Positions 174 to 60,375 of a stretch of DNA of 64,000 nt are shown here, piece by piece (position 1 is the stretch's first letter; each line of letters starts with the position of its first letter). The DNA is taken from contig NZ_JAPNJW010000001.1 in the NCBI RefSeq assembly GCF_026626745.1, positions 716,311 to 780,310 of the forward strand, read 5' to 3'. The position numbers and the translations under genes are program-made. Below the pieces are notes generated by a model. It was not told where the DNA came from, searched no databases, and was given only the letters and a program-made list of their open reading frames with translations. Origin of the DNA: Nannocystis sp. RBIL2. GTDB lineage: Bacteria > Myxococcota_A > Polyangia > Nannocystales > Nannocystaceae.

Positions 174-3149
174 TCAGCGAGCGACGTGGGCCAGCAGCCA
201 GGCGTCGACCCGCGAGACGTCCTCGTCGGCGTGATCGCCGGCGTAGTCGGCCCGCGCCTCCGACGCCAACGTCAGCGCCCGCGGACGGTCGCGGCCCGCG
301 ACCGCGCGGGCGAGCGCGAACCGCAGTTCGCCCAGGTCGACCGGCTGCACGTCCTTGCGGGTGCGGATCGCCAGCGCCCGCTCGAGCAGCGGCCGGGCCT
401 CCTCGAGGCGCCCGAGCTCGACCAGCGCCACGCCGAGGCCGTGCAGCGGATACGCCACCTCGGGGTCGTCGGGGCCGAACAGCGCCTGGCCCCGAGCCAG
501 CGCCTCCTCGTAGATCGGCACCGCGCGGGCGTAGTCGTGCTGCAGGTGGTAGCTGTTGGCGAGGTTGTACAGGGCATCGACCAGCCGCCCCTCCTGCCCC
601 GACGCCCGCCGCAGCACCCCCGCCGCCGCCTCGAAGTCGCCGCTCGCGCGCGCGTAGTCGCCGGTGAACACCAGCGCGCTGCCGAGGTTCATCCGCGTCG
701 ACGCGATCTCGGGGTGGTCCGGCCCGAGCGTGCGCACGCGGATGTCGAGCGCCCGCTCGAGCGCGGCGATCGCCTGGTCGAAGCGACCGGCCCGCATCTC
801 GAGGACGGCGATGTTGTTGAGCACCGACGCGACGTCGGGGTGGTCGGGTCCGAGGCGATCCTCGGCCAGCGCCAGCGCGTCGCCGAAGTACCGGCGCGCC
901 GCCTCGTCGCGCCCGCGCTTGTCCTCGAGCGAGCCGAGCGCGTTGAAGGCCGCGATCAGCAGCAGCCGCGACGACGCCGGCGCCGCGCGCAGCACCTCGA
1001 CCGCGGCCAGCAGCGTCTGGCGCGCGCCCTCGTGCTCGCCGCGGGCCGTCCGCACGATGCCGAGCGAGATGTCCCTTCGCGCCTGTTCGATGGGCCCTGC
1101 CCCTACGCGCAGGTCGGTGGCCGCCGCCAGCTGCAGCATCCGCTCGCCCTCGGCGTGGCGTTGCTGCAGCCCGCCGAGCACCAGCCCGAGCTCGGCCATC
1201 GCCTGCCCGCGCATCGGGTCGACCGCGCCGGCCTCCGCCGCCGCGATCGCCCGCGTGTGCAGCTCGACCGCCTGCTCGAAGCGGCCCTGGTCGGCCGCGA
1301 TCTGCCCGAGGGTGATCAGCGCCCGCGCCTCGATCGCCCCCGCCCCGGTCGCGCGCCCCTCCTGCAGCGCGCGCTCGGCCAGGCCCTGCGCCGCCGCGTA
1401 CTTGGCCGCGTGCCGCTTGGCCACCGCGTGGGCCAGGATGCCCTCGAGCCGCGCGACCTCCTCGCGGCTGGCGAGCCCGCGCCCGGGGCCCTGCATCAGC
1501 TGCTCGGCGTCGGCGCAGGCCTTCAGGTCGGGCAGCCCCTCGACCGCGACCGCGGCGCGCTGCACCACCTCGCGGTCCGCCTCGGAGAACAGCGCCGCGG
1601 TCGCCTGCAGCTGCTCGAGGTGGCGATCGAGGCAGGCCATGCGGCGGTCGAGCAGCAGCGGCGACTGCTCGTGGTGGACCAGCGACGCCTCGCAGACCTC
1701 GCGGCGCATCGCCACCCACGTCGCCGCGTACTCGTCGAGGGCGGCCGTCGCGGTCTCGGCCGCGCGCGCCGCGTACGGCTGCCCGGTCTCGAGGAACGCC
1801 TGCCGCGCCCGCTCCTTGATGCCCTCGTCCCACACCCCGACGAGGTGGCGGTCCGCGCCCTCGCAGCCCGGCGGCTTGACCTGCGCCCACACGATCCCGC
1901 CGGTCACCGTCGCCGCCACGCCCGCCACCGCCAGCGCGCCGAAGATCGTGCGCCGCCGCCGTTCCGTCGGCGCCAGCGCGGCGAGCATCGCGTCCATCGA
2001 TTCGAACCGCTGGCTCGGCTCGACCGCCAGCGCGCGGAGGATCGCCCGCCGCACGTGCAGCGGCACCGACGTGCGCACCGGCGTGGCGTCGATCTTGCCG
2101 CTGAGCACGCTCGTCGTCAGCTGCACGTAATTCTTGGCGGGGAACGGGTGGGCCTTGAACAGCGCCTCGAACAGCGCCACCGCGAACGCGAACTGGTCCG
2201 CGCGGGCATCGACGCGCTGCCCCATGTGCTGCTCCGGCGCCATGTAGGCCGGCGTGCCGACCAGCGCGCCGGTCCGCGTCAATCGCATCGACGACAGCCC
2301 CGCGATCGCCGAGTCGAGCCCCGTCGCCGGCGCCTGCGAGGCCAGCGCGACCGCCTGCAGCTTGGCCGCCGCCGGGTCGGTGTCGGCCAGCGGCGCCGGG
2401 TGGTTGCCGCGGTCGGTGGTGGCGAACGGCGACAGGCTCGCCGACATCGACGCGCTCGGCGGCGTCGAGATGTTCTCGGACATGTCCCGAGGGACAGCCG
2501 TGAACTCGGGCCCCTCCGCGCCGCGGGCGATGCCGAAGTCGACCACGCGCACCCGGCCGTCGCGGCCGACCAGCACGTTATCGGGCTTGAAGTCGCGGTG
2601 GACGATCCCGGCCTTGTGCGCGGCCGCCAGCCCGCGGCCGGCGGCCACGAAGGTGTCGAGGATCTCCTGGCTGGTCCGCTTGCCGTCCTTGAGCCAGCGC
2701 GACAGGTTGTGCCCGTCGACCAGCTCCATCGTCAGGTACACCAGCTCGCCGATGCGGTTGGCGTCGTAGATGGCGACCACGTTCGGGTGCTGCAGCCTGG
2801 CCAGCGCCTGGGCCTCGCGCAGCAGTCGGCCGACGATCTCGTCGGCGCGGTGGCCGGGGCGGGCGTGCATGATCTTGAGCGCCACCCGGCGGTCGAGCCG
2901 CGGGTCGTAGGCGGTGTAGACCACGCCCATCGCCCCCGCGCCGATGCGGTCGAGCACCGTGTAGCGCTCGATCGCCGCCCCGCGCTCGAACTTGAGCGCC
3001 TGGACCTCGTCGATCGACGGCGACTCGACCAGCGTCTCGACCCCGGTCAGGTGCGACTGATCGAGGTCGGAATGGGCCCCGGCGGTGCTGCGCGCGCTCG
3101 GCGGGCCTTCCGCGAAAGGCCCCTCGCCCGTCCTCGCCGCCTCGCCCAC
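174..3149 (-). CDS. Ser/Thr protein kinase with C-terminal TPR-repeat domain
   Basis: 991-aa ORF. N-terminal Hanks kinase motifs (GAGAMGVVY, VALK, HRDFKPDNVLV, DFGIA, APE) are followed by a long run of TPR-like helical repeats. Confidence 0.85.
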   Translation of the reverse strand: MGEAARTGEGPFAEGPPSARSTAGAHSDLDQSHLTGVETLVESPSIDEVQALKFERGAAIERYTVLDRIGAGAMGVVYTAYDPRLDRRVALKIMHARPGHRADEIVGRLLREAQALARLQHPNVVAIYDANRIGELVYLTMELVDGHNLSRWLKDGKRTSQEILDTFVAAGRGLAAAHKAGIVHRDFKPDNVLVGRDGRVRVVDFGIARGAEGPEFTAVPRDMSENISTPPSASMSASLSPFATTDRGNHPAPLADTDPAAAKLQAVALASQAPATGLDSAIAGLSSMRLTRTGALVGTPAYMAPEQHMGQRVDARADQFAFAVALFEALFKAHPFPAKNYVQLTTSVLSGKIDATPVRTSVPLHVRRAILRALAVEPSQRFESMDAMLAALAPTERRRRTIFGALAVAGVAATVTGGIVWAQVKPPGCEGADRHLVGVWDEGIKERARQAFLETGQPYAARAAETATAALDEYAATWVAMRREVCEASLVHHEQSPLLLDRRMACLDRHLEQLQATAALFSEADREVVQRAAVAVEGLPDLKACADAEQLMQGPGRGLASREEVARLEGILAHAVAKRHAAKYAAAQGLAERALQEGRATGAGAIEARALITLGQIAADQGRFEQAVELHTRAIAAAEAGAVDPMRGQAMAELGLVLGGLQQRHAEGERMLQLAAATDLRVGAGPIEQARRDISLGIVRTARGEHEGARQTLLAAVEVLRAAPASSRLLLIAAFNALGSLEDKRGRDEAARRYFGDALALAEDRLGPDHPDVASVLNNIAVLEMRAGRFDQAIAALERALDIRVRTLGPDHPEIASTRMNLGSALVFTGDYARASGDFEAAAGVLRRASGQEGRLVDALYNLANSYHLQHDYARAVPIYEEALARGQALFGPDDPEVAYPLHGLGVALVELGRLEEARPLLERALAIRTRKDVQPVDLGELRFALARAVAGRDRPRALTLASEARADYAGDHADEDVSRVDAWLLAHVAR

Positions 3150-4643: not shown

Positions 4644-5825
4644 ATGCAGCCGTACCCCATCACTGCCATGGCCCTGTGCAACGGCATGGGCGACAGCACC
4701 GCCGCCGTGCTCGCCGCCTTGCGTGCCGGTCGCTCCGGCCTCGGCCCGTGCCCCGCCGAGTTCGAGCTCGACGCGGTCGTCGGCGCCATCCCGACCCCGC
4801 TGCCGTCGCTGCCCGGCTTCCTCGGCCCGGTCCGCGACACCCGGCAGGCGCGGATCGCCGCGGTCGCCCTGGCCGAGCTGCAGGCCCCGCTGGACCGCGC
4901 GCGCGCCCGCTGGGGTTCGGACCGCGTCGCCATCGTCCTCGGCACCAGCACCGGCGGCATCGAGGCCAGCGAGACCGCCTACGCCCACGCGCAGGCCCAC
5001 GGCGGCGCCCTCCCGGCCGCCTACGACGTCGAGACCTCGCACGCCCTCGACGCCGTCCTGCACGTCGCCCGCGTCCTCGGCGGCGGCCTCGGCGGCCCGG
5101 CCTACGTCGTCTCGACCGCCTGCTCCTCTTCCGCCAAGGTGTTCGCCTCGGCCCAGCGGCTGCTCGCCGCCGGCCTGTGCGACGCGGTCCTGGTCGGCGG
5201 CGTCGACAGCCTGTGCCGCCTCACCGTGCGCGGCTTCGCCGGCCTCGAGGTCCTGTCCTCGCGGCCATGTCGTCCGTTCTCGCGCGAGCGGGCCGGCATC
5301 AACATCGGCGAGGGCGCCGCGCTGCTCCTGGTCGAACGGACAGGTGACGGCCCGGCCCGCCTGCTCGGCGTCGGCGAGAGCTCCGACGCCTACCACATGA
5401 CGAGCCCGCACCCCGAGGGCCTCGGCGCGCGCATGGCGATGGAGCGCGCGCTCCAGCACGCCGGCCTTTCCGCCGCCGACGTCGACCACGTCAACGCCCA
5501 CGGCACCGGCACCAAGCAGAACGACAGCATGGAGAGCGCGGCGATCCGGGCGGTGTTCGCCGGGGCCCCTGCGCCCGCGGTGGTCGCCACCAAGGGCTAC
5601 ACCGGGCACATGCTCGGGGCCGCGGGCGCCACCGAGGTCGCCTTCGTCATCGACGCCATCGCCGGCGGCTACCTGCCCGCCAGCGTCGGCGCCGACCCGC
5701 TCGACGACACCCTCGCGGTCGACGTGGTCACCGCCCGCCGCGACGTCCCCACCCGCGCCGCGCTGAGCAACTCGTTCGCCTTCGGCGGCAGCAACTGCAG
5801 CGTCCTCGTCGGAGGCCCGGCATGA
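4644..5825 (+). CDS. beta-ketoacyl-ACP synthase (KAS I/II-like; ApeO-like ketosynthase)
   Basis: 393 aa with active-site Cys in STACSSS, two His motifs (HMTSP, NAHGTGT) and C-terminal NSFAFGGSN. Its stop originally overlapped the next gene start. Confidence 0.85.
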   Translation: MQPYPITAMALCNGMGDSTAAVLAALRAGRSGLGPCPAEFELDAVVGAIPTPLPSLPGFLGPVRDTRQARIAAVALAELQAPLDRARARWGSDRVAIVLGTSTGGIEASETAYAHAQAHGGALPAAYDVETSHALDAVLHVARVLGGGLGGPAYVVSTACSSSAKVFASAQRLLAAGLCDAVLVGGVDSLCRLTVRGFAGLEVLSSRPCRPFSRERAGINIGEGAALLLVERTGDGPARLLGVGESSDAYHMTSPHPEGLGARMAMERALQHAGLSAADVDHVNAHGTGTKQNDSMESAAIRAVFAGAPAPAVVATKGYTGHMLGAAGATEVAFVIDAIAGGYLPASVGADPLDDTLAVDVVTARRDVPTRAALSNSFAFGGSNCSVLVGGPA

Positions 5826-5832
5826 GCGCCTG

Positions 5833-5896
5833 CGCTTCCAGACATGTTCATCGGGACATGTCCCGATGTTCATCCTGCCCGCTGCCCGCGGCCCGC
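5833..5896. mobile_element. about 64-bp CATG-palindrome element inserted at the KS/CLF gene junction, flanked by 23-bp direct repeats (CGTCGGAGGCCCGGCATGAGCGC)
   Basis: Direct repeat copies lie at about 5810-5832 and 5896-5918. Each copy contains the ATGA stop/start overlap; the insert carries GACATGTTCATCGGGACATGTCCCGATGTTCATC. Confidence 0.6.
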
Positions 5897-5910
5897 GTCG
5901 GAGGCCCGGC

Positions 5911-6714
5911 ATGAGCGCGCTCGCCTTCGCCGTCCGCGGCCTCGGGTTCTGGACCCCCGGCTACCCCGACCTCGCCGCCTGGCGGGCCCGGCCCGACACC
6001 TGGCCCGAAGGACAGGCGCCTCCGACCGAGCCGGCCGCCCCGAAGGCCGAGCTGCTGCCACCGATGATGCGGCGGCGCACCAGCCTGCTCACCCGCATGG
6101 CCGCCGAGGTGGCCGCCCAGGCGCTGCAGGACGGCGGCGTCGACCGGGCCGCGGCCACCCTCGTGTACGGCTCCGTCTACGGCGAGATCCGCACCACCCT
6201 CGACCTCCTCGCCGCCCTGCTCGTCCCCGGCGAGCCGCTGTCGCCGACCAAGTTCCACAACAGCGTCCACAACACGGCGGCCGGCTACGTCTCGATCGCC
6301 ACCGGCAACCGGGCCGGCAACGCCGCCCTGTCAGCCGGCCTCTCGACCCTCGCCATGGGCCTCGTCGAGTGCGCCGCCCTCGTGGCCGCCGGCGAGGGCG
6401 ACGTGGTGCTCGTGCTCGCCGAGGAGCCGCTGCCCGAGCCGCTGGCCGCCGGCCGCCGCTGGGACCCGTTCGCCGCCGCCTTCGCCCTTTCGGCGCCTGT
6501 CCCCGGCGACATGCCCATGAGGACATGTCGCCTCGAACATGGCGCGAATGACATGCTCCCCGCGCCACGTCCGGTCCCGGCCGCCCTGGCCGCCAACCCG
6601 TGCGCCGCCGCGCTCGCGCTGGTCGAGGCGCTGGCCGCCGGCGCCCCGGCGCGGATCGCCCTCGAGCCGCACCTCGCGGTCGGCTGGCAGTGCGCGCTCG
6701 GAGCCGGGGCATGA
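5911..6714 (+). CDS. KS-like chain-length-factor-type protein (Ketoacyl-synt_2 family, lacks active-site Cys)
   Basis: About 267 aa starting MSALAFAVRGLGFWTP; carries a KS N-terminal-domain-like signature (FHNSVHNTAAGYVSIATG). Its TGA overlaps the next ATG. It contains an in-frame CATG-repeat insertion at about 6507-6561. Confidence 0.7.
   Translation: MSALAFAVRGLGFWTPGYPDLAAWRARPDTWPEGQAPPTEPAAPKAELLPPMMRRRTSLLTRMAAEVAAQALQDGGVDRAAATLVYGSVYGEIRTTLDLLAALLVPGEPLSPTKFHNSVHNTAAGYVSIATGNRAGNAALSAGLSTLAMGLVECAALVAAGEGDVVLVLAEEPLPEPLAAGRRWDPFAAAFALSAPVPGDMPMRTCRLEHGANDMLPAPRPVPAALAANPCAAALALVEALAAGAPARIALEPHLAVGWQCALGAGA
6507..6561 (+). repeat. 4 tandem 14-bp CATG-core units (CGACATGCCCATGAG / GACATGTCGCCTCG / AACATGGCGCGAAT / GACATGCTCC) lying in frame inside the CLF-like CDS
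   Basis: Read directly from the sequence; they encode DMPMRTCRLEHGANDMLP within the protein. Confidence 0.8.
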
Positions 6715-7160
6715 CCGCCGACTTCCCGCCGGTGGCCGAGTTGGTCCCGCAGCGCCCGCCGATGCTGCTGCTCGACGAGGTCGTGGCCGCCGGCGACGAC
6801 GGCATCACCTGCGCCGCGCAGGTCCGCCCCGACAACCTGTTCGTCGTCGACGGCCGGGTCCACGCCTCGGCCCTGCTCGAGTACATGGCCCAAACAATCG
6901 CCGCGTTCGCCGGCCTGCGCGCGCGCGCCGACCATCAGCCGCCCGCGCTCGGCCTGATCGCCGCCTGCCGCAACCTCGAGCTGCACGCCGAGCACCTCGC
7001 CGTCGGCGACCCGCTGCAGATCGTCGCCACCCGCGTGTTCGCCGGCGCCATGGCCGAGTACCGCGCCGCAGTCACGCGCCGCGGCCAGCCGCTGGCCGAG
7101 GCCGTGCTCTCCGTCGTCACCACCGCCCCACCCAGCACCTCCGCAGGGAGCCCCGCATGA
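6711..7160 (+). CDS. hotdog-fold 3-hydroxyacyl-ACP dehydratase (FabA/FabZ/ApeP-like)
   Basis: 149 aa (MTADFPPVAELVPQRPPMLLLDEVV...); the size and motifs are typical of APE/FAS dehydratases. ATGA overlaps occur with both neighbours. Confidence 0.7.
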   Translation: MTADFPPVAELVPQRPPMLLLDEVVAAGDDGITCAAQVRPDNLFVVDGRVHASALLEYMAQTIAAFAGLRARADHQPPALGLIAACRNLELHAEHLAVGDPLQIVATRVFAGAMAEYRAAVTRRGQPLAEAVLSVVTTAPPSTSAGSPA

Positions 7161-7879
7161 AGCCACGCGCGCTCGTCACCGGCGCCAGTCGAGGGATCGG
7201 CGCTGCGATCGCCGAGGCCCTCGCGGCCGCCGGCCACCCCATCATCCTCAACTACCGCAGCGACGACGCGGCCGCCGAGGCCGTCGCCGCCCGGATCCGA
7301 GCCGCCGGCGGCGAGGTCGTCCTCAGCCGCTTCGACGTCGGCGACGACGCGGCCGCCGATGCGGCGATGAACGCCATCCTCGCCGACCCGCGGCCGCTCG
7401 GTGTCCTCGTCAACAACGCCGGGATCGCCCGCGACGCCCCGTTCCCCGCGCTCGAGCGGGCCGACTGGGAAGCTGTCCTTCGGACCAGCCTGGGCGGCTT
7501 CTACAACGTCACCCGCCCGGTGATCATGCCGATGGTGCGGCGCAAGTGGGGCCGGATCATCACCATGAGCTCCGTCTCGGCCCAGCTCGGCAACCGCGGC
7601 CAGGTCGCCTACGCCGCGGCCAAGGCCGGCGTCATCGGCGCGACCAAATCGCTGGCGCTGGAGCTCGCCCGCAAGGGCGTCACAGTCAACGCGGTCTCCC
7701 CCGGCCTCGTCGACACCGACATGATCAAGGACGTCCCGCTCGACCACGTGATGCCGCGGATCCCGGCGCAACGGCTCGGCACCGCCCCCGAGGTCGCCGC
7801 GCTGGTCGCGTTCCTCGCCAGCGACGCCGCCGCGTACATCACCGGTCAGGTGATCGGGATCAACGGCGGCATGGTATGA
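7157..7879 (+). CDS. fabG: 3-oxoacyl-ACP reductase (SDR, FabG-like)
   Basis: 240 aa with TGASRGIG cofactor motif, NNAG, and the catalytic S...YAAAKAG triad spacing. Confidence 0.85.
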   Translation: MKPRALVTGASRGIGAAIAEALAAAGHPIILNYRSDDAAAEAVAARIRAAGGEVVLSRFDVGDDAAADAAMNAILADPRPLGVLVNNAGIARDAPFPALERADWEAVLRTSLGGFYNVTRPVIMPMVRRKWGRIITMSSVSAQLGNRGQVAYAAAKAGVIGATKSLALELARKGVTVNAVSPGLVDTDMIKDVPLDHVMPRIPAQRLGTAPEVAALVAFLASDAAAYITGQVIGINGGMV

Positions 7880-7886
7880 CCCGGCC

Positions 7887-9086
7887 ATGCACGACGTCCT
7901 GATCGTCGGGGCCGGCCCGGCCGGATCGACTGCCGCCAACTTGCTCGCGCAGGCGGGCGTCCGGGCCGTCGCGCTCGACAAGGACGTGTTCCCGCGCTTC
8001 CACATCGGCGAGTCGCTGCTGCCGATCGACCTGCCGATCTTCGCCCGCCTCGGCGTCGCCATGGATCGCACGAGCTGGCAGTTCAAGCAGGGCGCCGAGT
8101 TCATCGACGAGCGCACCGGCGAGTTCGCCTTCTTCAGCTTCGCCGACGGCCTCGAGGGCACGCCCCCGCACGCGTGGCAGGTCGACCGCGCCACCTTCGA
8201 CACCATGCTGTGCGACGTCGCCAGGAGCCGCGGCGCCGACATCCGCTTCGGCGAGCGCGTGCGCGACATCGAGTTCATAGGCGATCACGTCCGCGTCGTC
8301 ACCGACCGCGAGGAGCACCGGGCCCGCTTCCTCCTCGACTGCACCGGCCAGGACGCCATGCTCGGCCGCGGCGCCCGCACGATCGCCCCGCTGCACGAGC
8401 TCGGGCGCGCCGCCGTCTTCTGCCACTTCGACGACCTCTCGCCCGAGGTGTGGGCCGAGCTCGGTGAGCAGGGCAACATCAAGGTCCTGATCGTCGAGGA
8501 CGGCTGGCACTGGCTGATCCCCATGCACGGCGGTCGGCTCAGCGTCGGCCTGGTGAAGTGGCGCGGCAAGCTCGACGACGACGCCTTCGAGGCCGCCCTG
8601 GCCGCCTCGCCGCTGTGCCGCCGGCTCACCGCCGGGGCCACCCGCAGCGCCTCGCGGACGATCCGCAACTGGAGCTACAAGAACACTCGCCCCTCCGGCC
8701 CGCGCTGGGCCTGCGTCGGCGACGCCTGCGCATTCCTCGATCCGGTGTTCTCGTCGGGCGTCTCGCTGGCGATGCTGGGCGCCGAACGGACCGTCGACCT
8801 CCTCGTCCCCGCGCTCGCCGAGGGCCGCGAGGCCGCGGCCGATCTCATGGCCCCGGTGCACGCCACCATGCAGGTCGCCTACGACAGCTTCGAGCAGCTG
8901 ATCCGCCGCTTCTACCACACGCGCCTCGTGTCGCACCTGTTCTTCGCCCGCACGCCCGACCCTCAGCTGCGGCGCGGCCTCATCAGCATGCTCGCGGGCG
9001 ACGTCTGGCGCGACGACAACCCGTTCCAGGACATGCTGCGAAGCTCTCGCGTGCAGCCGCAGCGGGTCGCCGCGCCGAGCGAGTGA
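7887..9086 (+). CDS. FAD-dependent oxidoreductase (halogenase / geranylgeranyl-reductase-like flavoprotein)
   Basis: 399 aa with an N-terminal GxGxxG dinucleotide fold (DVLIVGAGPAGSTAAN) and DxxxxGxxS-like segments. It is the last gene of the KS/CLF/DH/KR cassette. Confidence 0.75.
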   Translation: MHDVLIVGAGPAGSTAANLLAQAGVRAVALDKDVFPRFHIGESLLPIDLPIFARLGVAMDRTSWQFKQGAEFIDERTGEFAFFSFADGLEGTPPHAWQVDRATFDTMLCDVARSRGADIRFGERVRDIEFIGDHVRVVTDREEHRARFLLDCTGQDAMLGRGARTIAPLHELGRAAVFCHFDDLSPEVWAELGEQGNIKVLIVEDGWHWLIPMHGGRLSVGLVKWRGKLDDDAFEAALAASPLCRRLTAGATRSASRTIRNWSYKNTRPSGPRWACVGDACAFLDPVFSSGVSLAMLGAERTVDLLVPALAEGREAAADLMAPVHATMQVAYDSFEQLIRRFYHTRLVSHLFFARTPDPQLRRGLISMLAGDVWRDDNPFQDMLRSSRVQPQRVAAPSE

Positions 9087-9237
9087 CTGCAAGCTTTGTA
9101 AGCCAGATCGCAATTTAGTCACTCGCTACCTCCCCCGACTTCCGCGAAAGGCAGAGGTCGGCGCGCGATGGTTGCGTGTGCAACGTTGCAATTTGCCCAA
9201 TCCCATTGTTCCCTCATCGGCGTCGGGAACGAGTCGC

Positions 9238-10482
9238 ATGCACGCACGCATCCCTCTTCGCATCCGGGTCGGCGTCGATTGGCGCGTCGCGGTGGCTCTG
9301 ATGCTGGCGGGCTGTCTCGATCGCAACGGCGGGCAGATCGATCCGACCACGGTCGAGCTGTCGACCGGCAGCGGCACCGACAGCAGCAGCAGCGGCACCA
9401 GCGGCCCCGGCATCATGACCACCACCGTCGATCCGGGCGGCAGCGACGGCGACAGCGGCTCGACCGGCGACCCGACGCCCGCGCCGTGCGGCAACGGCAA
9501 GATCGACGTGCCCGAGCAGTGCGATCAGGGCGACGCCAACGGCGACGACCGCGAGTGCACGTCCTCCTGCCGCTGGAACATCTGCGGCGACGGCCTGCTC
9601 AAGATCGGCGACGAGGTCTGCGACGACGGCAAGGGCAAGAACGGCAGCTACGGCCACTGCGGCAAGTACTGCAAGGACTTCTCCCCACACTGCGGCGACG
9701 GCACGTTGCAGGCGGCCGACGGCGAGGTCTGCGACGACACCAATCCGATGTACGGCTGCCTCCCCGACTGCACGCGGGCGACCTCGTGCCTCGACATCCG
9801 CACCGGCTGGGGCGACGCGGCCCAGACCGGCCTCTACTCGATCCGTCGCGAGGACAGGCAGGTGACCGTGTGGTGCGACATGCAAGCCGACGGCGGCGGC
9901 TACACATTCTTAAAGTACGCATCGGGCACTCTGGTCCCCAACCCGCCCGAGCCGGACAAGTTCATCGGCGAGCCGCTCACCGCGGCGCAAGCCGAGGAGA
10001 AGTGCGCCTCGTGGGGCCTGCGCCTGTTCTCCCCGCGCACGCAGCAGCACCTGCGAGCCGCCGTCACCGCCGCGAGCGCCCCCGAGTTCGCCCCGATCCA
10101 CGTCACCGGCGGCTACCCCTCGGGCGTCGCCGCCGACAGCGACGCCGCCGGCTACCTGTCGATCATGGGCATCTATCCCGTCACTCCGGGCCTCAGCTGC
10201 GCGAGCAAGCCGCTCAACAGCGAGGACTGCCCGCAGTGGGCCGCGAAGCCCGATCCGCAGGACCCCGACGTCGTGAGGCCCTACTGGGTCACCGACAAGA
10301 TCTTCTTGGACGAGCCAGGCACCACCAATTGCGCCGGCTGCTCGCTCTACTACGCCTGGAACCTCGACGTGCAGCCTCCCGTCCTCACGAGCTACGAGGC
10401 GGTCAACCTGAACGGCAAGGGTTGGGTCAGCCCGCACTTCCTGTGCGAAGTCGGCGACAAGCTCGGCCCGCCCGAAGGCTGA
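9238..10482 (+). CDS. secreted lipoprotein with myxococcal cysteine-rich repeats and a fibrinogen-related (FReD-like) C-terminal domain
   Basis: Lipobox signal (VAVALMLAGC). Three CxxCGDGxxxxxExCDDG-type repeats. The C-terminal GLYSIRREDRQVTVWCDMQADGGGYTFLKY matches the fibrinogen C-domain core (VYCDM..GGGWT). Confidence 0.65.
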   Translation: MHARIPLRIRVGVDWRVAVALMLAGCLDRNGGQIDPTTVELSTGSGTDSSSSGTSGPGIMTTTVDPGGSDGDSGSTGDPTPAPCGNGKIDVPEQCDQGDANGDDRECTSSCRWNICGDGLLKIGDEVCDDGKGKNGSYGHCGKYCKDFSPHCGDGTLQAADGEVCDDTNPMYGCLPDCTRATSCLDIRTGWGDAAQTGLYSIRREDRQVTVWCDMQADGGGYTFLKYASGTLVPNPPEPDKFIGEPLTAAQAEEKCASWGLRLFSPRTQQHLRAAVTAASAPEFAPIHVTGGYPSGVAADSDAAGYLSIMGIYPVTPGLSCASKPLNSEDCPQWAAKPDPQDPDVVRPYWVTDKIFLDEPGTTNCAGCSLYYAWNLDVQPPVLTSYEAVNLNGKGWVSPHFLCEVGDKLGPPEG

Positions 10483-10543
10483 CACCTGCTCTCTCGGCCA
10501 TGTCCTGGGACTCCTGTCCTCGAGGCCACCCGGTCCGCCTCGC

Positions 10544-11143
10544 TCAGGCGACCCCGAGCGACTCCAGCAGCTCCACCACCTCCGCGAGCGGCAGCCCGAC
10601 CACGTTCGTGTAGCTGCCCTCGATCTTGCGCACCAGCCCGGCCGCCGCGCCCTGGATCCCGTAGGCCCCGGCCTTGTCGCGCCACTCCTCCGTGTCGAGG
10701 TAGCGATCGATCTGCGCCGGAATCAGCGGCCGGAACCACACCGTCGTCGTCACCGCGAACGGGTGCCAGCGGACCTCGGGCCCGCGGAGGTCCGCGATCG
10801 CCACGGCAGTCGTCGTGAAGTGGGAGCGGCCCGCCAGCCGGGTCAGCATCGCCGCCGCCTCCGCGCGGTCGGCCGCCTTCGCCAGCGGTTCGACCTGTCC
10901 TTCGAGCCAGACCGTCGTGTCGGCCGCCAGCACCACCGAACCTGGCCGCAAGGCCAGGTCGGCCTTGGCCCGCGCCACCCGCTCGACGTACGCCGGCGGC
11001 GGCTCGCCGGGCAACCACGTCTCGTCGGCGTCGACCGGCGCGCGCGTACACGCGATCCCGGCCGAGCGCAGCAGTTCGGCCCGCCGCGGCGACGCCGAGG
11101 CGAGGACGAGGACAGGCGGGGTCTGCGGGGCGGGCTCGGTCAT
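10544..11143 (-). CDS. maf: Maf-like nucleoside triphosphate pyrophosphatase (septum formation protein)
   Basis: About 200 aa with LVLASASPRRAELL and C-terminal AGAYGIQG motifs. Confidence 0.8.
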   Translation of the reverse strand: MTEPAPQTPPVLVLASASPRRAELLRSAGIACTRAPVDADETWLPGEPPPAYVERVARAKADLALRPGSVVLAADTTVWLEGQVEPLAKAADRAEAAAMLTRLAGRSHFTTTAVAIADLRGPEVRWHPFAVTTTVWFRPLIPAQIDRYLDTEEWRDKAGAYGIQGAAAGLVRKIEGSYTNVVGLPLAEVVELLESLGVA

Positions 11144-11376: not shown

Positions 11377-12366
11377 ATGCGGCGCCCCTTCTGCCTCTCG
11401 AGCGTCTACCTCCTCGCGGTCCTCGCGCTGTCGGCCCCGCTCATCGTCGTCGAGGCGCCCGACCCCGGCGAACCTGTCCCCGAGGACACCTGCGACGCCG
11501 ACGCCGTCGACCCCGAGCTGCTGGGCGTCTGGCACCGCTGGGACGCCCTCGCCGAGGGCGACCGCATGCGCTTCTACTTCTTCCACGAGGGCGGCTTCGG
11601 CCTCTACCGCTACGGCAAGGTCGGCCTCACCAACACCCACAGCTTCGACTACCGCGCCGAGGGCGGCCACCTCGAGCTCACCTTCCGCAAGACCGGCGAG
11701 CGCCGGCGCGTCCCCTACCGCCTCGAGGAGCAGGGCGGACGCACCTGGCTGGTCCTCGACGACGACCCGCGCGAGCCCGGCGGCGCCCGCTACTTCAAGG
11801 CCCCGGCGGCCACCACCGGCGCGCCCTGCTACGACCCCGCGGGCGACCTGCCCCAAAAGCCAGGCACTCCCGCGCCCGGGCCCACCGCCAGCGACCTGCC
11901 CCAAGAGCCAGGCTCCCCCGCGCCCGCGCTGCTCGCCGCGGGCCTGCCCCGAGAGCCAGGCTCCCCCGCGCCCCTCGCCGCCGACGACCTCGCCGCCGCC
12001 GAGCGGATCGGCGGGCGCCTGTGGGGCGAGGAGGTCCGTTACGCCACCGGCGGCATGGGCTTCTCGATCTACCAGCTGCAGCCGCAAGCGATCGACGGCC
12101 GCGGCGTCGGCTGGCACCACCGCGGCGACTACGACGAGTGGACCACTGAGACCCTGACCTACCGCCAGCGCGGCGATCGCCTGGCCCTGTCGTTCCCGCT
12201 GCGCCACGACGGCCTCGACACCGCGATCCTCGTCAGCGGCAGCGGCGACGACCGCACCCTCCAGCTCGCCGAGGATCCGCGCGACTTCTGGCGCGCCCAC
12301 ACCTACCGCGACATGGGCCCCACCTTCGCCGGCGCGGTCGCCCCGAGCGCCTGCCTGCCGCAGTGA
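11377..12366 (+). CDS. hypothetical secreted protein with 3 x 48-bp internal tandem repeats
   Basis: Signal peptide MRRPFCLSSVYLLAVLALSAP; repeats DLPQ(K/E)PG(T/S)PAP; no recognisable domain. Confidence 0.45.
   Translation: MRRPFCLSSVYLLAVLALSAPLIVVEAPDPGEPVPEDTCDADAVDPELLGVWHRWDALAEGDRMRFYFFHEGGFGLYRYGKVGLTNTHSFDYRAEGGHLELTFRKTGERRRVPYRLEEQGGRTWLVLDDDPREPGGARYFKAPAATTGAPCYDPAGDLPQKPGTPAPGPTASDLPQEPGSPAPALLAAGLPREPGSPAPLAADDLAAAERIGGRLWGEEVRYATGGMGFSIYQLQPQAIDGRGVGWHHRGDYDEWTTETLTYRQRGDRLALSFPLRHDGLDTAILVSGSGDDRTLQLAEDPRDFWRAHTYRDMGPTFAGAVAPSACLPQ
11845..11973 (+). repeat. 3 x 48-bp tandem repeat within the hypothetical secreted protein gene
   Basis: GACCTGCCCCAA(A/G)AGCCAGGC(A/T)C(T/C)CCCGCGCCC x 3. 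Confidence 0.8.
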
Positions 12367-12418
12367 CCACCCCGTCGACGCCGACTCTGCCTGTCTCTTC
12401 GCGCAGGCCCTTCAAGAC

Positions 12419-13150
12419 ATGTCCTTGACGCCAGACGACATCGCCGCCAACCTCGCCGCCGTCCGCGCCCGGATCGCCGCCGCCGTCGCCCGACGCGGCC
12501 CCGGTCCCGTGCCCACCCTCATCGGCGTCAGCAAGAAGCAGCCCGCCGAGGCCGTGATCACCGCCTGTCGGGCCGGCCTCGGCGACCTCGGCGAGAACTA
12601 CGCCCAGGAGCTGGTCGCCAAGGCCGAGCTCGTCGCCGCGGCCGTCACCCCGCCGCGCTGGCACTTCATCGGCCCGCTGCAGACCAACAAGGTGCGCAAG
12701 GTCGTCGCCGTCGGCGCCCTCGTCCACACCGTCGATCGCCCGGGGCTCGTCGACGAGCTCGCCCGCGAGGTCGAGCGCCTGCGCGCGGGCCGAGGCGCCA
12801 CCACCCCGCTCGAGCTGCTCGTCGAGGTCAACGTCGGCGACGAGGCGCAGAAGGCTGGCGTCTCCCCGACGGACCTGCCGGCGCTGCTCGACCAGATCGC
12901 CGCCCGTCCCCAGCTGCGCTGCGTCGGCCTCATGGCGATCCCCCCCGAGGGCGAGCCGGAGCAGACTCGCCCGTACTTCGCCCGCCTGCGCGAGCTGCTG
13001 CGCCGTGAAGCCGCGATCGCGCGCCCCGGCGTCGACCTGGTCCACCTCTCCATGGGCATGAGCGCCGACTTCGAGGTCGCGATCGAAGAGGGCGCGACCA
13101 TGGTCCGCGTCGGCACCGCCATCTTCGGCGCCCGTCCGCCGCGCGCCTGA
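12419..13150 (+). CDS. yggS: YggS-family pyridoxal-phosphate-binding protein (PLP homeostasis)
   Basis: 243 aa with the alanine-racemase N-terminal fold signature (LIGVSKKQP...GHLQTNKVR...). Confidence 0.85.
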   Translation: MSLTPDDIAANLAAVRARIAAAVARRGPGPVPTLIGVSKKQPAEAVITACRAGLGDLGENYAQELVAKAELVAAAVTPPRWHFIGPLQTNKVRKVVAVGALVHTVDRPGLVDELAREVERLRAGRGATTPLELLVEVNVGDEAQKAGVSPTDLPALLDQIAARPQLRCVGLMAIPPEGEPEQTRPYFARLRELLRREAAIARPGVDLVHLSMGMSADFEVAIEEGATMVRVGTAIFGARPPRA

Positions 13151-13300: not shown

Positions 13301-14638
13301 ATGTCCCCGCGCGGCGCGGCGTGCTATCGCAGGCGCGTGCCCAAGGCACCATTGCTCGCACCGCCCGGGCCCCCGACGATCTCCTTCTACTGGGACGGCG
13401 CCCCGGTCGCCGCTTGCCCCGGCGACACCGTCGCCTCCGCGCTGATCGCCGCCGGCGAGCTCGCCACCAGCCGCAGCGCCAAGTACCGCCGGCTGCGCGG
13501 CCCCGCCTGCCTGCACGGTGGCTGCGGCACCTGCCTCGTGCGCGTCGACGGTCGGCCCAACCAGCGGGCCTGTCTCACGCCTGTCCGCGAGGACATGCGC
13601 GTCGAGCCGCAGAACACCTACGGCGGCCTCGACCCGACCGCCCTCGTCGACCAGGTGTTCCGCCGCGGCATCGACCACCACCACCTCGTCGTCTACCCGC
13701 GGATCGCCAACCAGATGATGCAGGGCGTCGCCCGCGAGCTGGCCGGCTTCGGCGAGCTGCCCGACGCGCCGCCCGAAGACGTCCCCGGCGTCGTTGACCA
13801 CGCCCCCGAGGTCCTGGTCATCGGGGCAGGTCGCTCGGGCCGCGCGCTCGCTACCTCTCTGGCCGCCGCCGGCCACCCGCCGCTGGTCGTCGAGCGCCGC
13901 CCCGCCGCCGCCCTCGCCGGCAGCGATCTCCCGGCCCGGCTCCTCGCCGGCGTCGGCGTGTTCGCCTGCTACCCGCAGGAGCGGCTGTGGGCCGCCGCCT
14001 CCGAGCAGCCGCCGGTGCTCCACCGCCTGCGCCCGCGCCACGTCGTGCTGGCCGTCGGCGCCCACGAGCCGACCATCCCCCTGGCCAACAACGACCTCCC
14101 GGGGGTCGTGTCCGCACGTGGCCTCGCGGACATGCTCGAACAGACAGGTCGCAAGCTCAGCGCGCGCGTCGTCGTCATCGGCGAGGGCGCCCGCGCCGAG
14201 CTGCTCGCGAGCACCCTCGCCGCCGAGCGGGTCCCGCCGGCCCGCGTGCGCAAGCTGATCGGCGCGCGTCGGGTCAAGGGCGTCCAGCTCGAGGACGGCA
14301 AGATCCTCCGCTGCGACCTCGTCGCCCTCGCCCCCGACCCCGCGCCCGCCTTCGAGCTGGCCGCCCAGGCCGGCGCCCCGATCCACTTCACCGGGGCCGG
14401 CTTCGCCCCCGTCGTTGACGCCGACGGCCGGATCGCCGCCGGCCCGGCCGCGCACCCGCTCGAGGCCGAAGGCGCCCAGACGGCCCCGCCTCCGCCGTGG
14501 ACGCTGTGGGCCGTCGGCGAGCTGGCCGGCGCCACCACGCCCGCCGAGATCCGCGGCACCGTCGACCGCTGCGCCGCGGCCCTGGTGCGCGCGCTCGCCG
14601 AGTCACCTGCCCCGAAGGACAGCCATGACCGCGCCTGA
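13301..14638 (+). CDS. opine/sarcosine oxidase alpha-subunit or HcnB-like FAD/NAD oxidoreductase with N-terminal 2Fe-2S domain
   Basis: 445 aa. The N-terminal Cys cluster ([22 protein letters not shown]) is followed by the pyridine-nucleotide-disulfide oxidoreductase fold ([14 protein letters not shown]). Confidence 0.75.
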
Positions 14639-14689
14639 GCCCCGCGTCCGCGATCTGTCCCGTGGGACAGGCCCGAGCACCCGGGCCCA

Positions 14690-14800
14690 CCAGTCGTCCT
14701 CGACTGCCGAGCTCGCCGGGCTTTCGACTGCCGAGCTCACAGCCCCAGCCGCCCCCGCGCACGAGCCGTCACCAGCAACTGCCGAGCTCGCCGAGCCCGC
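14690..14800. repeat. three copies of ACTGCCGAGCTC(G/A)C in the 285-bp spacer between flavoenzyme subunit genes; the GT-centred palindrome CTGTCCC-GT-GGGACAG lies just upstream at about 14655-14670
   Basis: Read directly from the sequence. Confidence 0.75.
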
Positions 14801-14923
14801 GACGGCCGAGCCCGCTCGCCTGTCTCCCGGGCCAGCCGCCGGCGACCTGTCCTTGCGGACATCCTGTCGGCGCTCGCCTCCCCTGTCGCCGCCGACCTCC
14901 CTCCTGCCCCCGCGAGGCCTGCC

Positions 14924-17628: not shown

Positions 17629-17695
17629 GCCGACTGGCCGCCAGGACATGTCCTCGCGGCCAGCTCGGCGGTGCCGTCCGTCCGGCTGAGCTCGC

Positions 17696-18320
17696 ATGTC
17701 GCAGCACGAGATCGAAGACACCGTCGCCGACTCGCTGCGCGTGCTCCACGAGCACCACCGCGGCGACGACCACTGCGGGTGCGCGGTGATCGGCAGGCGG
17801 TAGGTGAAGCGCCGCGCGATCAGGATGTCGAAGACCGGCCCACCGTCGGTCACGAGAACGGTTTCCTCCTCGAGGGCGCCCTGTACTGCGACGCCGGCAC
17901 GCCGCTGTGGCACGAGCTCGCCGCCGCCGGGGTGCTGCGAGGCGCCGACGCCGAACCGCCGCGGCCGCTGCCCCTCGGCGCCGTCGCGCTGCAGGTGACG
18001 CGGGCGGCCGAGCCGATCGACGACCGCGACCTGATCGCCAGGTGGATCAACTTCGGCCCGCGAATGCTGTTCCCGAAGACCCGGCACGTGCACAAGGGCG
18101 AGCTGGTGGCCCCGAACCCGTTCACGGGCGACCCGATCGTCGCCCCGAAGACTGCGTCCTCCCGGCCGAACCGACGGTCGCAGAGCTCGCCGCCATCCCC
18201 GACGCAGTCGCGCTGCGCGAGCTGGCCCGCCGCGTCGACGCCATCAACGTCCCGGTCCACTACGACTACCGCCCGCCGCGCGAGCTCTGGTCCGAGGCCG
18301 AAGCCTGGTTCTGGGGCTGA
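17696..18320 (+). pseudogene. disrupted hypothetical gene (in-frame TAG near 17800 plus two apparent frameshifts near 17860 and 18138)
   Basis: Three segments, each with high third-position GC, lie in different frames. They read MSQHEIEDTVADSL... / ...HENGFLLEGALYCDAGTPLWHEL...NPFTGDPIVAP / EDCVLPAEPTVAELAAIP...YDYRPPRELWSEAEAWFWG. Confidence 0.3.
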
Positions 18321-18470: not shown

Positions 18471-19778
18471 TCACGCGACCAGTCGACCGACCGCGAGCGG
18501 CCCGTCGGCGTTCTCGACCTCGATTTGCGTCGCCCGGCCGAGCAGCGCGTCGTCTCCGGCCGCCAGCACCGTCAAGCCGTTGCCGGCCCGACCGACCAGC
18601 AGCCCCGTCCGCCGGTGTCGCGTCCGGTGCACGACCACCGGCAGGGTGCGCCCGACCTGCGCCGCCGCGAACGCCCGCTGCTTCGCCGCCGACAGCGCCC
18701 GCAACGCCGCCCCGCGCTGCTGCTTGACCGCCGCATCGACCTGTCCCGAGAGACAGGCAGCATCGGTGCCCGCGCGCGGTGAGTAGGCGAACACGTGCAG
18801 GTACGCCAGCGGCAGCGCGGCCAGCAGCGCGTGCGTGGCCGCGAACGCCTCGTCCGACTCCCCGGGGAAGCCGACGATCACGTCGGTGCCGACGCCGATC
18901 CCCGGCACCGCCCCGGCCAGGCGAGGCACCAGCGCCTGCAGGTCGGCGGCGGTGTGCGCCCGACGCATGCGCCGCAGCGTGTCGTCGTCGCCGCTCTGCA
19001 CCGGCAAGTGGAGGTACGGACACAGCCGCGGATCCGTCGCCAGCAGCGTCACCAGGTGATCGTCGACTTCGTGCGGATCGACCGAGCCGAGGCGCAGCCG
19101 CGCCGGCCCGAGCTGCGGCAGCAGCTCCGCGACCAGCGACGACAACGTGCTGCGCGGCCGCAGGTCGCGGCCATAGATCCCGAGGTGGACCCCGGTGAGC
19201 ACCACCTCCGGCACCCCCGCCGCGACCAGCTCGTCCAGCTGCGCCCGCACCTCCGCCGGCGGCACGCTCACGCTGCGCCCGCGCACCTGCGGCACGATGC
19301 AGAAGCTGCAGCGGTAGTCGCAGCCGTCCTGGATCTTCAGGTACGCCCGGCTGCGCCGCGGGTCGGCGGCCGGGCGCAACCGGGCCGCGCGGACGCGCCG
19401 CAGCAGGTCGACCGGGGCCACGTGGATCTCCGGGACATGTTCCTCCGAACATGTCTCTCCGAGCACCTCGAACAGCCGCTCCTTCTCGCGGTTGCCGACC
19501 ACCAGCGTCACCCCGGGCAGCGCGGCCGCCTCCGCGGGGGCGGCCGTCGCCCAGCAGCCGGTGACGACCACCTTCGCCCCGGCGCGCGCGGCCCGGCGCA
19601 CGTGCTGGCGCGCGTCGGCGTCGGCCTCGTGGGTGATCGTGCAGGTGTTGACGATCACGACCTCGGGCGCGGCCTCGGCGTCGACCACGGTGTGGCCGGC
19701 CGCGCGGGCCATCTGCTCGAGGGCGTCGGACTCGAACTGGTTGAGGCGACAGCCGAGCGTGCTGAACGCGACGCGCAT
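18471..19778 (-). CDS. mtaB: radical SAM methylthiotransferase, MtaB (YqeV)-like
   Basis: N-terminal MTTase domain (MRVAFSTLGCRLNQFESD), CxxxCxxC radical SAM motif (DGCDYRCSFCIVP) and a C-terminal TRAM-like region. Its ATG overlaps the kinase stop (ATGA). Confidence 0.85.
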   Translation of the reverse strand: MRVAFSTLGCRLNQFESDALEQMARAAGHTVVDAEAAPEVVIVNTCTITHEADADARQHVRRAARAGAKVVVTGCWATAAPAEAAALPGVTLVVGNREKERLFEVLGETCSEEHVPEIHVAPVDLLRRVRAARLRPAADPRRSRAYLKIQDGCDYRCSFCIVPQVRGRSVSVPPAEVRAQLDELVAAGVPEVVLTGVHLGIYGRDLRPRSTLSSLVAELLPQLGPARLRLGSVDPHEVDDHLVTLLATDPRLCPYLHLPVQSGDDDTLRRMRRAHTAADLQALVPRLAGAVPGIGVGTDVIVGFPGESDEAFAATHALLAALPLAYLHVFAYSPRAGTDAACLSGQVDAAVKQQRGAALRALSAAKQRAFAAAQVGRTLPVVVHRTRHRRTGLLVGRAGNGLTVLAAGDDALLGRATQIEVENADGPLAVGRLVA

Positions 19779-24470: not shown

Positions 24471-24477
24471 ACTTTAC

Positions 24478-24564
24478 GGCATGTCCGTGTGGACATGCCC
24501 TTTCATGCAGGGCCGTTCGGACATGTCCGAACGGCCCTGTCGCTTGCTCCGTCGACAAGCGACA
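24478..24564. terminator. cluster of three GC-rich palindromes (22, 32 and 25 nt) downstream of the acyl-CoA dehydrogenase
   Basis: GGCATGTCC-GTGT-GGACATGCC; a perfect 32-nt palindrome CAGGGCCGTTCGGACATGTCCGAACGGCCCTG; and GTCGCTTG-N9-CAAGCGAC. Confidence 0.6.
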
Positions 24565-24649: not shown

Positions 24650-24677
24650 TGACCGCCAGGACATGTCCTGGCGGTCA
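24650..24677. terminator. perfect 28-nt palindrome TGACCGCCAGGACATGTCCTGGCGGTCA next to the convergent binding-protein gene end
   Basis: Read directly from the sequence; a candidate bidirectional terminator hairpin with a CATG core. Confidence 0.6.
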
Positions 24678-35633: not shown

Positions 35634-37202
<1,569 letters not shown>

Positions 37203-37277: not shown

Positions 37278-37499
37278 CGACCTGTCTCTCCGGACATCTC
37301 GCGCGCGCTCGGGCCGCGGCTGTGTTCAACCTGTCCCTTTGAACATATCGCGCTCCGACCGCGCCATACTCGACCTGTCTCTCCGGACATCTCGACCGCG
37401 CAGATCCACCCGTCATCGTTCAGGTGGATCACCTGCCCCTTCGGACATCCTCGAGGCGCGGCGCTCACCGGCTCGCCGCCTGTCCCTTCGGACATCCCA
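37278..37499. repeat. array of 5 spaced copies of a 24-bp unit CGACCTGTCyCTyCGGACATCyCG (units 1 and 3 identical), periodicity 44-59 bp
   Basis: Read directly from the sequence. Degenerate further copies occur at about 37570 and 37695, the latter overlapping the start of the downstream lipoprotein gene. Confidence 0.85.
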
Positions 37500-37657
37500 T
37501 CTCCGCTCCCCGCGGGCGGCGCCTGCGCCTGCGTTCGCGGCTCGCCCGGTCCCTTCCTCACCAGACCTGCGACTGTCCCCTCGCCTCGGTCTGCGCGACG
37601 CGCCTCGATTGCCGGGCGCGGTCCGGGGTCCACGTTTGCCTGAACTCTGGATCACCG

Positions 37658-39296: not shown

Positions 39297-39378
39297 TTTC
39301 AGAGCATGTCTCGAAGCACATGCCCCATCGAACATGCCCTGAAAGACATGCCCCATCGGGCATGCCCGTGAGCGCCGC
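39297..39378. repeat. 5 tandem 13-16-bp CATG-core units (AGAGCATGTCTCGA / AGCACATGCCCCATCG / AACATGCCCTGAA / AGACATGCCCCATCG / GGCATGCCCGTGAG) filling a convergent intergenic region
   Basis: Read directly from the sequence; the array occupies the entire space between two convergent stop codons. Confidence 0.85.
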
Positions 39379-45449: not shown

Positions 45450-45524
45450 TGTCTTCACGGACAGGCGCTCGAGAGCATGTTCTCACGGACATGTCTGGAC
45501 GATCATGTCCCCGCGGACATGTCC
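45450..45524. repeat. TGTC-N6-GACA element plus 4 tandem CATG-core units (GAGAGCATGTTCTCACG / GACATGTCTGGAC / GATCATGTCCCCGCG / GACATGTCCTCAG) in a convergent intergenic region
   Basis: Read directly from the sequence between the ABC ATPase stop and the mqnD stop. Confidence 0.85.
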
Positions 45525-50826: not shown

Positions 50827-50836
50827 CCCTTCGAAC

Positions 50837-60312: not shown

Positions 60313-60375
60313 GGGGCATGCTCGATCGCGCAGGTCTTGTTCGACATGTCCTCTCGGACATGTGCTTTGCGACAG
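60301..60375. repeat. CATG-core units and palindromes (CATGCCC-TGAG-GGGCATG; TTCGACATGTCCTCTCGGACATGTGC)
   Basis: Read directly from the sequence. Confidence 0.8.

Follow-up and report, generated by a model that had tools for sequence, protein, structure and literature searches.

Three genes in a 64-kb stretch of the Nannocystis sp. RBIL2 genome (contig NZ_JAPNJW010000001.1, positions 716,311–780,310, ~71% G+C; hereafter the window) carry short repeats with a CATG core inside their coding sequences (CDSs): a CLF-like gene (PF13723; true start at ~5911, stop at 6714), the gene for MtaB (18471–19778, minus strand) and a gene for a TPR Ser/Thr kinase (174–3149, minus strand). The question raised by this locus is how such repeats come to lie in frame within proteins and what keeps them there. 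In a preliminary description, they were explained as insertions that survive only when they preserve the frame and fall in linkers between domains. All three copies are indeed present and in frame, and insertion accounts for a part of the pattern, namely, a lengthened linker in MtaB and an insert between two biosynthetic genes, but it does not hold generally. The in-frame repeats with the CATG core are probably copies of a hyper-abundant interrupted palindrome, TGTCC-N4-GGACA, written into the genes mostly by substitution and maintained as a nucleic-acid site.

The repeat unit

The unit is 14 bp long (5-4-5) and, unless copies are called exact, is counted here with at most one mismatch to TGTCC-N4-GGACA over the ten specified bases. 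The spacing is strict: among the sequences of the form TGTCC-Nn-GGACA, 11 exact ones are found in the window at n = 4 (0.07 expected) and none at any other n from 0 to 12; similarly, TGTC-N6-GACA occurs 17 times, compared with 0–1 at other spacings. With one mismatch allowed, there are 39 copies against 1.67 expected, a 23-fold excess that is reached in none of 100 shuffles and that, on the 64-kb window, lies above the composition-aware over-representation of at least ~15-fold taken to mark motifs of the highly iterated palindrome (HIP) type. The enrichment drops from 157-fold for exact units to 20-fold for one mismatch and ~1.3-fold for uncompensated two-mismatch variants; the compensated two-mismatch variants are in mild excess (5 vs 1.4 expected). 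The palindrome continues into the flanks, as AC[C/A]TGTCC-N4-GGACA[G/T]GT, where the C/G variant (CCTGTCC) is commoner than the A/T variant that creates CATG (A at position 0 in 15 of the 39 copies). Beyond 20 bp, isolated units share no flank consensus.

The CATG core results from the abutment of two units (GGACA|TGTCC), and GGACATGTCC is the junction so formed, with 7 exact occurrences (0.13 expected) and 21 at 9 or more of the 10 positions (1.7 expected). The shorter strings GACATGT (34 vs 3.5 expected) and ACATGT (22 vs 3.6) are over-represented as well. Neighbouring units abut solely at a 14-bp offset, and because the arrays are runs of abutting units, the period is strict: two CATG are separated by exactly 14 bp in 17 cases and by 13 or 15 bp in 1–2. 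The CATG-core repeats first described are thus far above chance in number, but CATG catches only a subset of the copies of the actual unit. A second family of direct repeats, CCTGTCyCTyyCGGACATC, lacks CATG, yet has the same half-sites, and it was because of these shared half-sites that the arrangement of half-sites was tested.

The signal within genes

Far from being confined to the three genes initially singled out, the copies that fall within CDSs, as assigned by a heuristic based on third-position G+C content (GC3) and open reading frames (ORFs), number 19 of the 39 and occupy all three codon phases. The motif therefore occurs both within and between ORFs and, with a consensus of no more than 20 bp, outside any longer mobile element, as is the case for HIP-type motifs. 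Recurrent peptides, of which RTCP and DMS had been pointed out, are real; the main one encoded by the in-CDS copies is PVPxD[M/T/S].

Synonymous resampling, in which 27 protein sequences were fixed and the codons re-drawn 300 times from the window's own usage, yields 2.2±1.4 copies (maximum 7), compared with the 18 observed in these genes; for the exact copies, the numbers are 0.06 and 4, respectively. The signal therefore resides in the DNA rather than in the protein. The codons required by the motif are rare in the window (ACA 2%, GCA 2%, TGT 11%, CAT 4.5%, GAA 7%, GGA 2.7%), and the motif, in whatever phase, is superimposed on existing codons by means of such rare synonymous ones.

The linker of MtaB, a protein that is 96% identical to its counterpart in Nannocystis pusilla, followed among the matches by those of other Nannocystis species, illustrates the persistence of these codons. 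In the seven motif-bearing orthologues (96–78% protein identity), [A/G]CA TGT is kept in all seven and CAT G[T/C]C in six, with CAG GCG in the remaining one (L083). Each of the seven has 4–7 A/T-ending codons among the 11 of the linker, compared with 2–6% in the rest of the gene and with 0–2 of the 11 in the two motif-free orthologues. The residue changes follow the R/Y degeneracy of the motif, T to A corresponding to ACA to GCA and V to A corresponding to GTC to GCC.

The other in-CDS copies are scattered among genes of diverse annotation. Exact units encode PVPEDT in a lipoprotein-like CDS (11475–11488), PVREDM in a Fer2_4 oxidoreductase CDS (13582–13595), PVPADS 30 nt before the stop of CDS 35634–37202 (37172–37185) and DVLKDT in a HAD-hydrolase CDS (47551–47564). 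The Fer2_4 CDS contains two more units, each with one mismatch: one at 14119–14132, encoding RGLADM and followed by a degenerate abutting unit, with the rare codons conserved, and one near the C-terminus at 14608–14621, encoding PAPKDS and conserved in the related loci L084 and L085. Another one-mismatch unit is found in the C-terminal part of MtaB ('CLSGQ', 18742–18755), and a unit inside the ketosynthase (KS) gene (5254–5267) overlies the conserved segment LSSRPCRPF.

Three genes have a unit over their start codon (…ACATGTCC…, read as Met-Ser), at 12415–12424, 37709–37718 and 50833–50842; the one at 12415 is conserved in Nannocystis radixulma despite the diverged upstream sequence.

Substitution versus insertion

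The first rival explanation is that of a small mobile palindromic element, comparable to a miniature inverted-repeat transposable element (MITE) or a Rickettsia palindromic element (RPE), that inserts throughout the genome and survives within genes only in frame and in linkers. On balance this is unlikely, and the orthologues of the genes concerned supply most of the evidence on both sides. Orthologous loci include those of N. pusilla Na p29 (L001) and N. radixulma (L002), along with contigs from other relatives. For the kinase, the homologue search had returned generic kinases, and orthologues were taken from syntenic loci; a genome scan with Maf was dominated by distant Maf genes and recovered two Nannocystis loci only.

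MtaB comes closest to the expectation for a mobile element. Its linker copy, which encodes LGETCSEEHVPE at 19463–19428 on the minus strand, consists of a half-site, a full unit TGTTCCTCCGAACA that is a compensated variant, and another half-site (19433–19456, minus-strand peptide ETCSEEHVP). It sits between the UPF0004 (residues 2–95) and Radical_SAM (148–318) domains, exactly as was proposed for the linker between the methylthiotransferase and radical-SAM domains. The linker is 3–4 codons longer in the motif-bearing orthologues than in L085, L086 and all distant relatives, and because these motif-free close lineages and all the distant relatives have the shorter form, the longer one is derived. 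The gain of 9–12 nt is, nevertheless, below the 24–36 nt of the element, the remainder of which aligns with pre-existing linker codons, so that the insertion of predicted length anticipated for the linker is not what the alignment contains.

The kinase copy was correctly reported to encode PRDMSENIS, but the range given for it (2475–2497) covers the DNA repeat, whereas the peptide maps to 2492–2466 on the minus strand. The copy consists of GGACA abutting an exact unit, TGTCCCGAGGGACA (2478–2496, minus-strand peptide AVPRDM). It is not in a linker past the kinase domain, as had been proposed, but falls between the DFG and APE motifs, within an activation-loop insert of ~100 residues, which breaks the Pkinase match in two after profile position 152 of 263. 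The orthologue in L087 aligns codon for codon (GCT GTC CCG AAG GAC CTG GTC), retaining the 14-mer with one mismatch; the abutting half-site alone differs. In N. pusilla, the frame of the kinase orthologue ends early (…HPFPAKTTCS*), where the window has …HPFPAKNYVQLTTSV…, which reflects either a frameshift or an assembly error.

In the CLF-like gene, DMPMRTCRLEHGANDMLP is encoded as described, with the start shifted by one base (6508–6561 rather than 6507–6561). Four abutting units begin at 6498, 6512, 6526 and 6540 (6498–6553), the first two with one mismatch each, and their junctions produce four CATG at 6510, 6524, 6538 and 6552. Rather than occupying an inter-domain linker, the copy lies inside the PF13723 domain, at the point where the profile match breaks off (position 168 of 223). 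N. pusilla, N. radixulma and L089 share with the window an intact M-x3-TC-x3-H pattern, in which three CATG follow one another at 14 bp; in L087, L088 and L090, the DNA of the array is degenerate (ACC TGT, CCC TGT) and some residues persist, the 14-bp phasing being still visible in the L090 gene, which is 47–48% identical. Alignments with homologues that are ~40% identical are gap-free at the motif. Directly 5' of the conserved motif, the orthologue in L089 (~10580–10660) has a 20-residue insert, PVVPSVQPVPSIQSIQAVPW, with a choice of A/T-ending codons that is untypical of that genome. This insert counts in favour of a mobile element and suggests that the motif site is an indel hotspot.

The CLF-like gene belongs to a biosynthetic set of the aryl-polyene type (4644–9086), with a KS, the PF13723 CLF, an ApeP-like dehydratase and a ketoreductase; an FAD-dependent halogenase is encoded next to the set, whose synteny is kept in the Nannocystaceae contigs L087–L090.

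Most of the remaining in-CDS sites leave little room for insertion. The KS site at 5254 aligns without gaps with its orthologues, and CCA TGT CGT is kept out to L090; the site at 13582 is gap-free too, the motif-free L085 differing by five substitutions and no indel; and no gap is present at the motif in the alignments of the 14119, 14608 and MtaB 18742 sites. Together with the kinase copy, six of the eight in-CDS sites examined are without an indel, and none of the eight shows an element-length gap between orthologues of the kind that an RPE or an in-frame MITE would leave. These gap-free alignments argue for substitution under DNA-level constraint as the general rule. Survival in linkers only, for which the location of several in-CDS copies in linkers, loops or C-terminal tails could speak, is contradicted by the copy over the conserved KS segment 'SRPCRPF' and by the length of the unit, which at 14 bp is not a multiple of three and is found in all phases. 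Isolated units without shared flanks past 20 bp, too, are not what a mobile element would be expected to leave, and neither a transposase nor a methyltransferase was detected among the ~43 window ORFs scanned with Pfam (ORFs up to ~57.7 kb); the same scan, within the 64 kb, yielded no RAYT (Y1 transposase).

Evidence for mobility also comes from between genes. At the junction of the KS and CLF-like genes, 85 bp are inserted (5830–5914, plus strand): 62 nt with two units, which form a 20-bp palindrome, CATCGGGACATGTCCCGATG, and a 23-nt duplicate of the junction containing the ribosome-binding site and ATGA. Because the insert duplicates these 23 nt, both KS and CLF remain intact. The ancestral 4-bp ATGA overlap of the two genes is kept in the five loci that lack the insert (L002 and L087–L090), and in N. 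pusilla, the insert is longer and contains an additional unit pair. Such a target-site duplication is seen at this intergenic junction only and at none of the in-CDS copies. This is the one clear insertion, and it shows that the repeat family can arrive by insertion. Most in-gene copies differ from motif-free orthologues by substitutions, with small unit-sized gains in addition (3–4 codons in MtaB and 85 bp at the KS–CLF junction), so that substitution is the common route and insertion the minority one.

Arrays between genes and predicted structure

Non-coding copies tend to cluster just after stop codons, and clusters occupy four convergent gaps. One, between ORF 9172–10482 and Maf, contains units at 10496–10528. 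Another holds a two-unit array with a 32-bp perfect palindrome centred on GGACATGTCC (24477–24539) and, farther on, two abutting units that form a 28-bp palindrome, 26 bp of it perfect (24650–24677). The gap between the amidohydrolase and Exo_endo_phos genes is filled by a five-unit array (39302–39367), and that between the ABC ATPase and VitK2_biosynth genes by one unit, three abutting units and a half-site (45450–45524). Additional arrays are a two-unit array 3' of the kinase gene (107–130), two abutting units in a 28-bp near-perfect palindrome just past the stop of the MBL-fold gene (17635–17662, identical in N. pusilla and N. radixulma) and two two-unit arrays between co-directional genes (60300–60365). 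In both 28-bp palindromes, the outer half-sites and the spacers of the two units are mutually complementary.

A different arrangement is found on the plus strand at 37279–37713, where six dispersed CCTGTCyCTyyCGGACATC units are spread over a non-coding stretch of ~500 bp, the last one taking in the start ATG of the downstream ORF, for which there is no Pfam match. No other non-abutting cluster in the window is as dense, and the region resembles an operator or promoter.

The hairpins predicted at arrays and long palindromes are more stable than those of shuffled sequences, with z from −2.1 to −8.2 (the latter at 24477–24539). Hairpin-forming palindromes clustered 3' of genes, as judged from predicted folds and the four convergent gaps, are also a feature of repetitive extragenic palindromic (REP) sequences. 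The second rival explanation, that the units act in RNA, as hairpins that would terminate or stabilize transcripts, with the in-gene copies serving as attenuators or pause sites, draws on this stability and on the positions just past stop codons and in convergent gaps, as well as on the excess of compensated variants and on the MtaB linker, where ACATGT/ACATGT becomes GCATGT/ACATGC in two orthologues. We consider such a role improbable as the general explanation. The covariation in the MtaB hairpin is not significant (one compensatory pair, with 149 of 500 shuffles doing as well), the stem of an isolated unit is only 5–8 bp, and, among the one-mismatch sites in CDSs, G·U is not favoured on the sense strand (~1 sense vs 5 antisense by a manual tally). 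There are no U-tracts, and no Rfam family matches at threshold anywhere in the window. CATG is the loop in some predicted folds and part of the stem in others, so that the copies have a sequence, not one structure, in common. Taken together, the variable fold position of CATG, the null covariation, the lack of a sense-strand G·U preference and the steep fall-off with mismatches indicate that what is shared is a sequence with dyad symmetry.

Distribution among relatives

Nannocystis has an amplified set of copies, and other Nannocystaceae carry the motif at a lower density. Measured as copies with at most one mismatch per kb (0.026 by chance in the window), the density is 0.61 in the window, 0.68 in N. 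pusilla and N. radixulma, 1.34 in L084 and 0.09–0.37 in other contigs of the Nannocystaceae type; L085–L088 and L090 carry the 14-mer at low density. Unrelated genomes do not exceed 0.05, except for L021 with 0.15, where control spacings score similarly. Between species, the N4 spacer and the flanks of in-gene copies drift while the motif bases tend to be kept. The intergenic region after the Fer2_4 gene (14638–14885) contains two exact units, at 14656 and 14848, and aligns poorly among the window, N. pusilla and N. radixulma; in N. radixulma, the unit at 14656 has identical half-sites and a spacer that differs at three of the four bases.

The variation of density by lineage, along with the origin of copies by substitution in any phase, including within conserved protein segments, also accords with a third rival, a neutral mutational or repair bias, for example, a methyltransferase-tied process of the very-short-patch type that would turn near-matches into functionless copies of the motif. 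Such a mechanism has been discussed for HIP1 (PMC5861425). It is quite implausible here: a ten-base bipartite specificity with a strict N4 is long for repair bias, nor would such a bias lead one to expect arrays clustered where convergent genes end. For HIP1 itself, Xu et al. favour selection over biased repair.

The last alternative, a coincidental nucleotide likeness over a conserved protein motif in which the residues TC, HVP and DM matter, can be practically dismissed, for although some residues outlast the DNA motif (T-C as ACC TGT in L088 and L090), it is already contradicted by the synonymous resampling (18 vs 2.2), by the rare codons retained in seven MtaB orthologues and by residue changes that stay within the degeneracy of the motif (ACA to GCA; GTC to GCC).

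Possible function and known systems

If the copies are a maintained nucleic-acid site, the motif would most likely be read as a palindromic double-stranded site or else as a small hairpin or cruciform. A sequence-specific factor would recognize it genome-wide, and maintenance could be due to selection or to a copy-favouring drive, an argument also made for HIP1 of cyanobacteria. At the 3' ends of convergent genes, arrays and long palindromes may additionally act as structures similar to REPs or bacterial interspersed mosaic elements (BIMEs). The proteins would merely tolerate the motif, which would explain why many copies lie in linkers, loops and tails.

Several observations weigh against this reading of the motif. 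The counts are drawn from 64 kb plus ~170 kb of related contigs, a scale below that of the whole genome, and the division into coding and non-coding copies depends on the GC3/ORF heuristic of the authors. In the comparison with N. radixulma, 8 of 16 whole sites keep all ten specified bases, which exceeds the background of 34% for random positions only modestly. The enriched compensated variants and the long perfect palindromes that include the spacers are not predicted by a simple dimer-site model; they point to base pairing or to an origin by template switching. The Pfam scan of ~43 window ORFs turned up no binding factor, methylase or transposase, so that the function is suggested by analogy only.

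In behaviour, the closest analogue is HIP1 (GCGATCGC), described as a short palindrome that is many-fold over-represented within and between ORFs and conserved between genomes (PMC5861425), and as a motif whose function is still unresolved (PMC5861425; PMC4390886). A survey of HIP motifs (Elhai 2015) makes no mention of CATG motifs or myxobacteria. Both HIP1 and the Nannocystis motif overlie coding sequence without element-like insertions. The two differ in sequence and phylum, the Nannocystis motif being TGTCC-N4-GGACA and not GCGATCGC, and in architecture: HIP1 is uninterrupted and does not form abutting arrays, whereas the Nannocystis motif is interrupted (5-4-5) with a free spacer, and its units line up in abutting tandem arrays and make long palindromes at the 3' ends of genes. 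HIP1 is linked to orphan methyltransferases (cognate GATC, CGATCG).

The arrays have features in common with REPs, BIMEs and REPINs, the latter being hairpin-forming palindromes that make up 3' intergenic arrays, including those in convergent gaps, and are capable of new insertions (PMC3116915, PMC3337134). Hairpins, 3' clusters, including those in convergent gaps, and the capacity to insert are shared features. REPs, however, are extragenic, 20–40 nt long and have a conserved stem and flank, whereas the Nannocystis units span 14–20 bp and about half of the copies are intragenic. RPEs, which are palindromic too, sit in frame within housekeeping genes that are unrelated to one another, where they add or alter peptide segments (PMC10969869). 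These elements are ~150 bp long, insert whole and encode a conserved peptide, in contrast to the 14-bp Nannocystis unit, which occurs in all phases and encodes several peptides.

The uptake signal sequences of Pasteurellaceae and the DNA uptake sequences of Neisseriaceae (USS/DUS) are 9–12-mers with thousands of copies in coding and non-coding DNA, which accumulate by substitution, favour tolerant protein positions and, in inverted pairs, act as terminators; they are non-palindromic, and their driver is biased uptake. The Nannocystis motif resembles USS/DUS in the spread over coding and non-coding DNA and in the substitution route but is palindromic, and we know of no competence link for Nannocystis.

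The operators of PadR-family regulators have the consensus ATGT-N8-ACAT (PMC4517056), which is fitted by the A-variant of the motif (cATGTCC-N4-GGACATg), that is, by the 15 of the 39 copies with A at position 0. PadR operators are limited to a few promoter sites per genome, whereas the Nannocystis motif reaches ~0.6 copies per kb, with half of the copies in genes, most copies of the C-variant (CCTGTCC) and most copies outside a promoter context, so that the likeness is a possible lead on fold or geometry only. Sites of the p53-like form RRRCATGYYY, CRISPR-like arrays and LexA, MrpC and ParB sites were considered and dropped for poor fit.

As a tentative extension, it is possible that Nannocystaceae carry a HIP1-like system of their own, in which a dedicated factor binds or modifies the DNA, the site overrides codon bias and imposes PVPxD, xTC, HVP and DM on hundreds of proteins, and the abutting arrays play a structural or topological role at convergent ends. 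Nothing on this motif turned up in the searchable literature on palindromes and REPs of Nannocystis or other myxobacteria, and an interrupted palindrome of the HIP type with the power to override codon bias appears to be undescribed for a myxobacterial lineage. What highly iterated palindromes are for has been an open question since the description of HIP1, and a myxobacterial example would represent a second, independent and, if the HIP1-like system is real, experimentally approachable case of genome-wide palindrome maintenance, with extra handles in the bipartite motif, the abundance gradient among related lineages, the arrays at defined positions and a culturable genus. On a more practical level, the codon usage of Nannocystis genes, among them those of natural-product biosynthetic clusters, and the protein sequence around the sites are distorted by the motif, which could also mislead the annotation of repeats, terminators or insertions.

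Other features of the window

The genes near these copies include SHMT, Maf, a YggS-like gene, a Fer2_4/DAO oxidase set and an MBL-fold gene. Downstream of the MBL-fold gene, 60 bp (17772–17831) that are 100% identical to N. pusilla are inverted, beside a block of more than 130 bp that is present in N. pusilla only, which makes this a local rearrangement. Three coding tandem repeats are unrelated to the palindrome: a 48-bp unit repeated three times in a Pro-rich lipoprotein-like gene (11837–11980), a 66-bp unit repeated three times in ORF 35634–37202, which has no Pfam match (36476–36673), and a repeat with a 15-bp period that encodes Asn/Gly-rich pentapeptide-like repeats (58909–59038).

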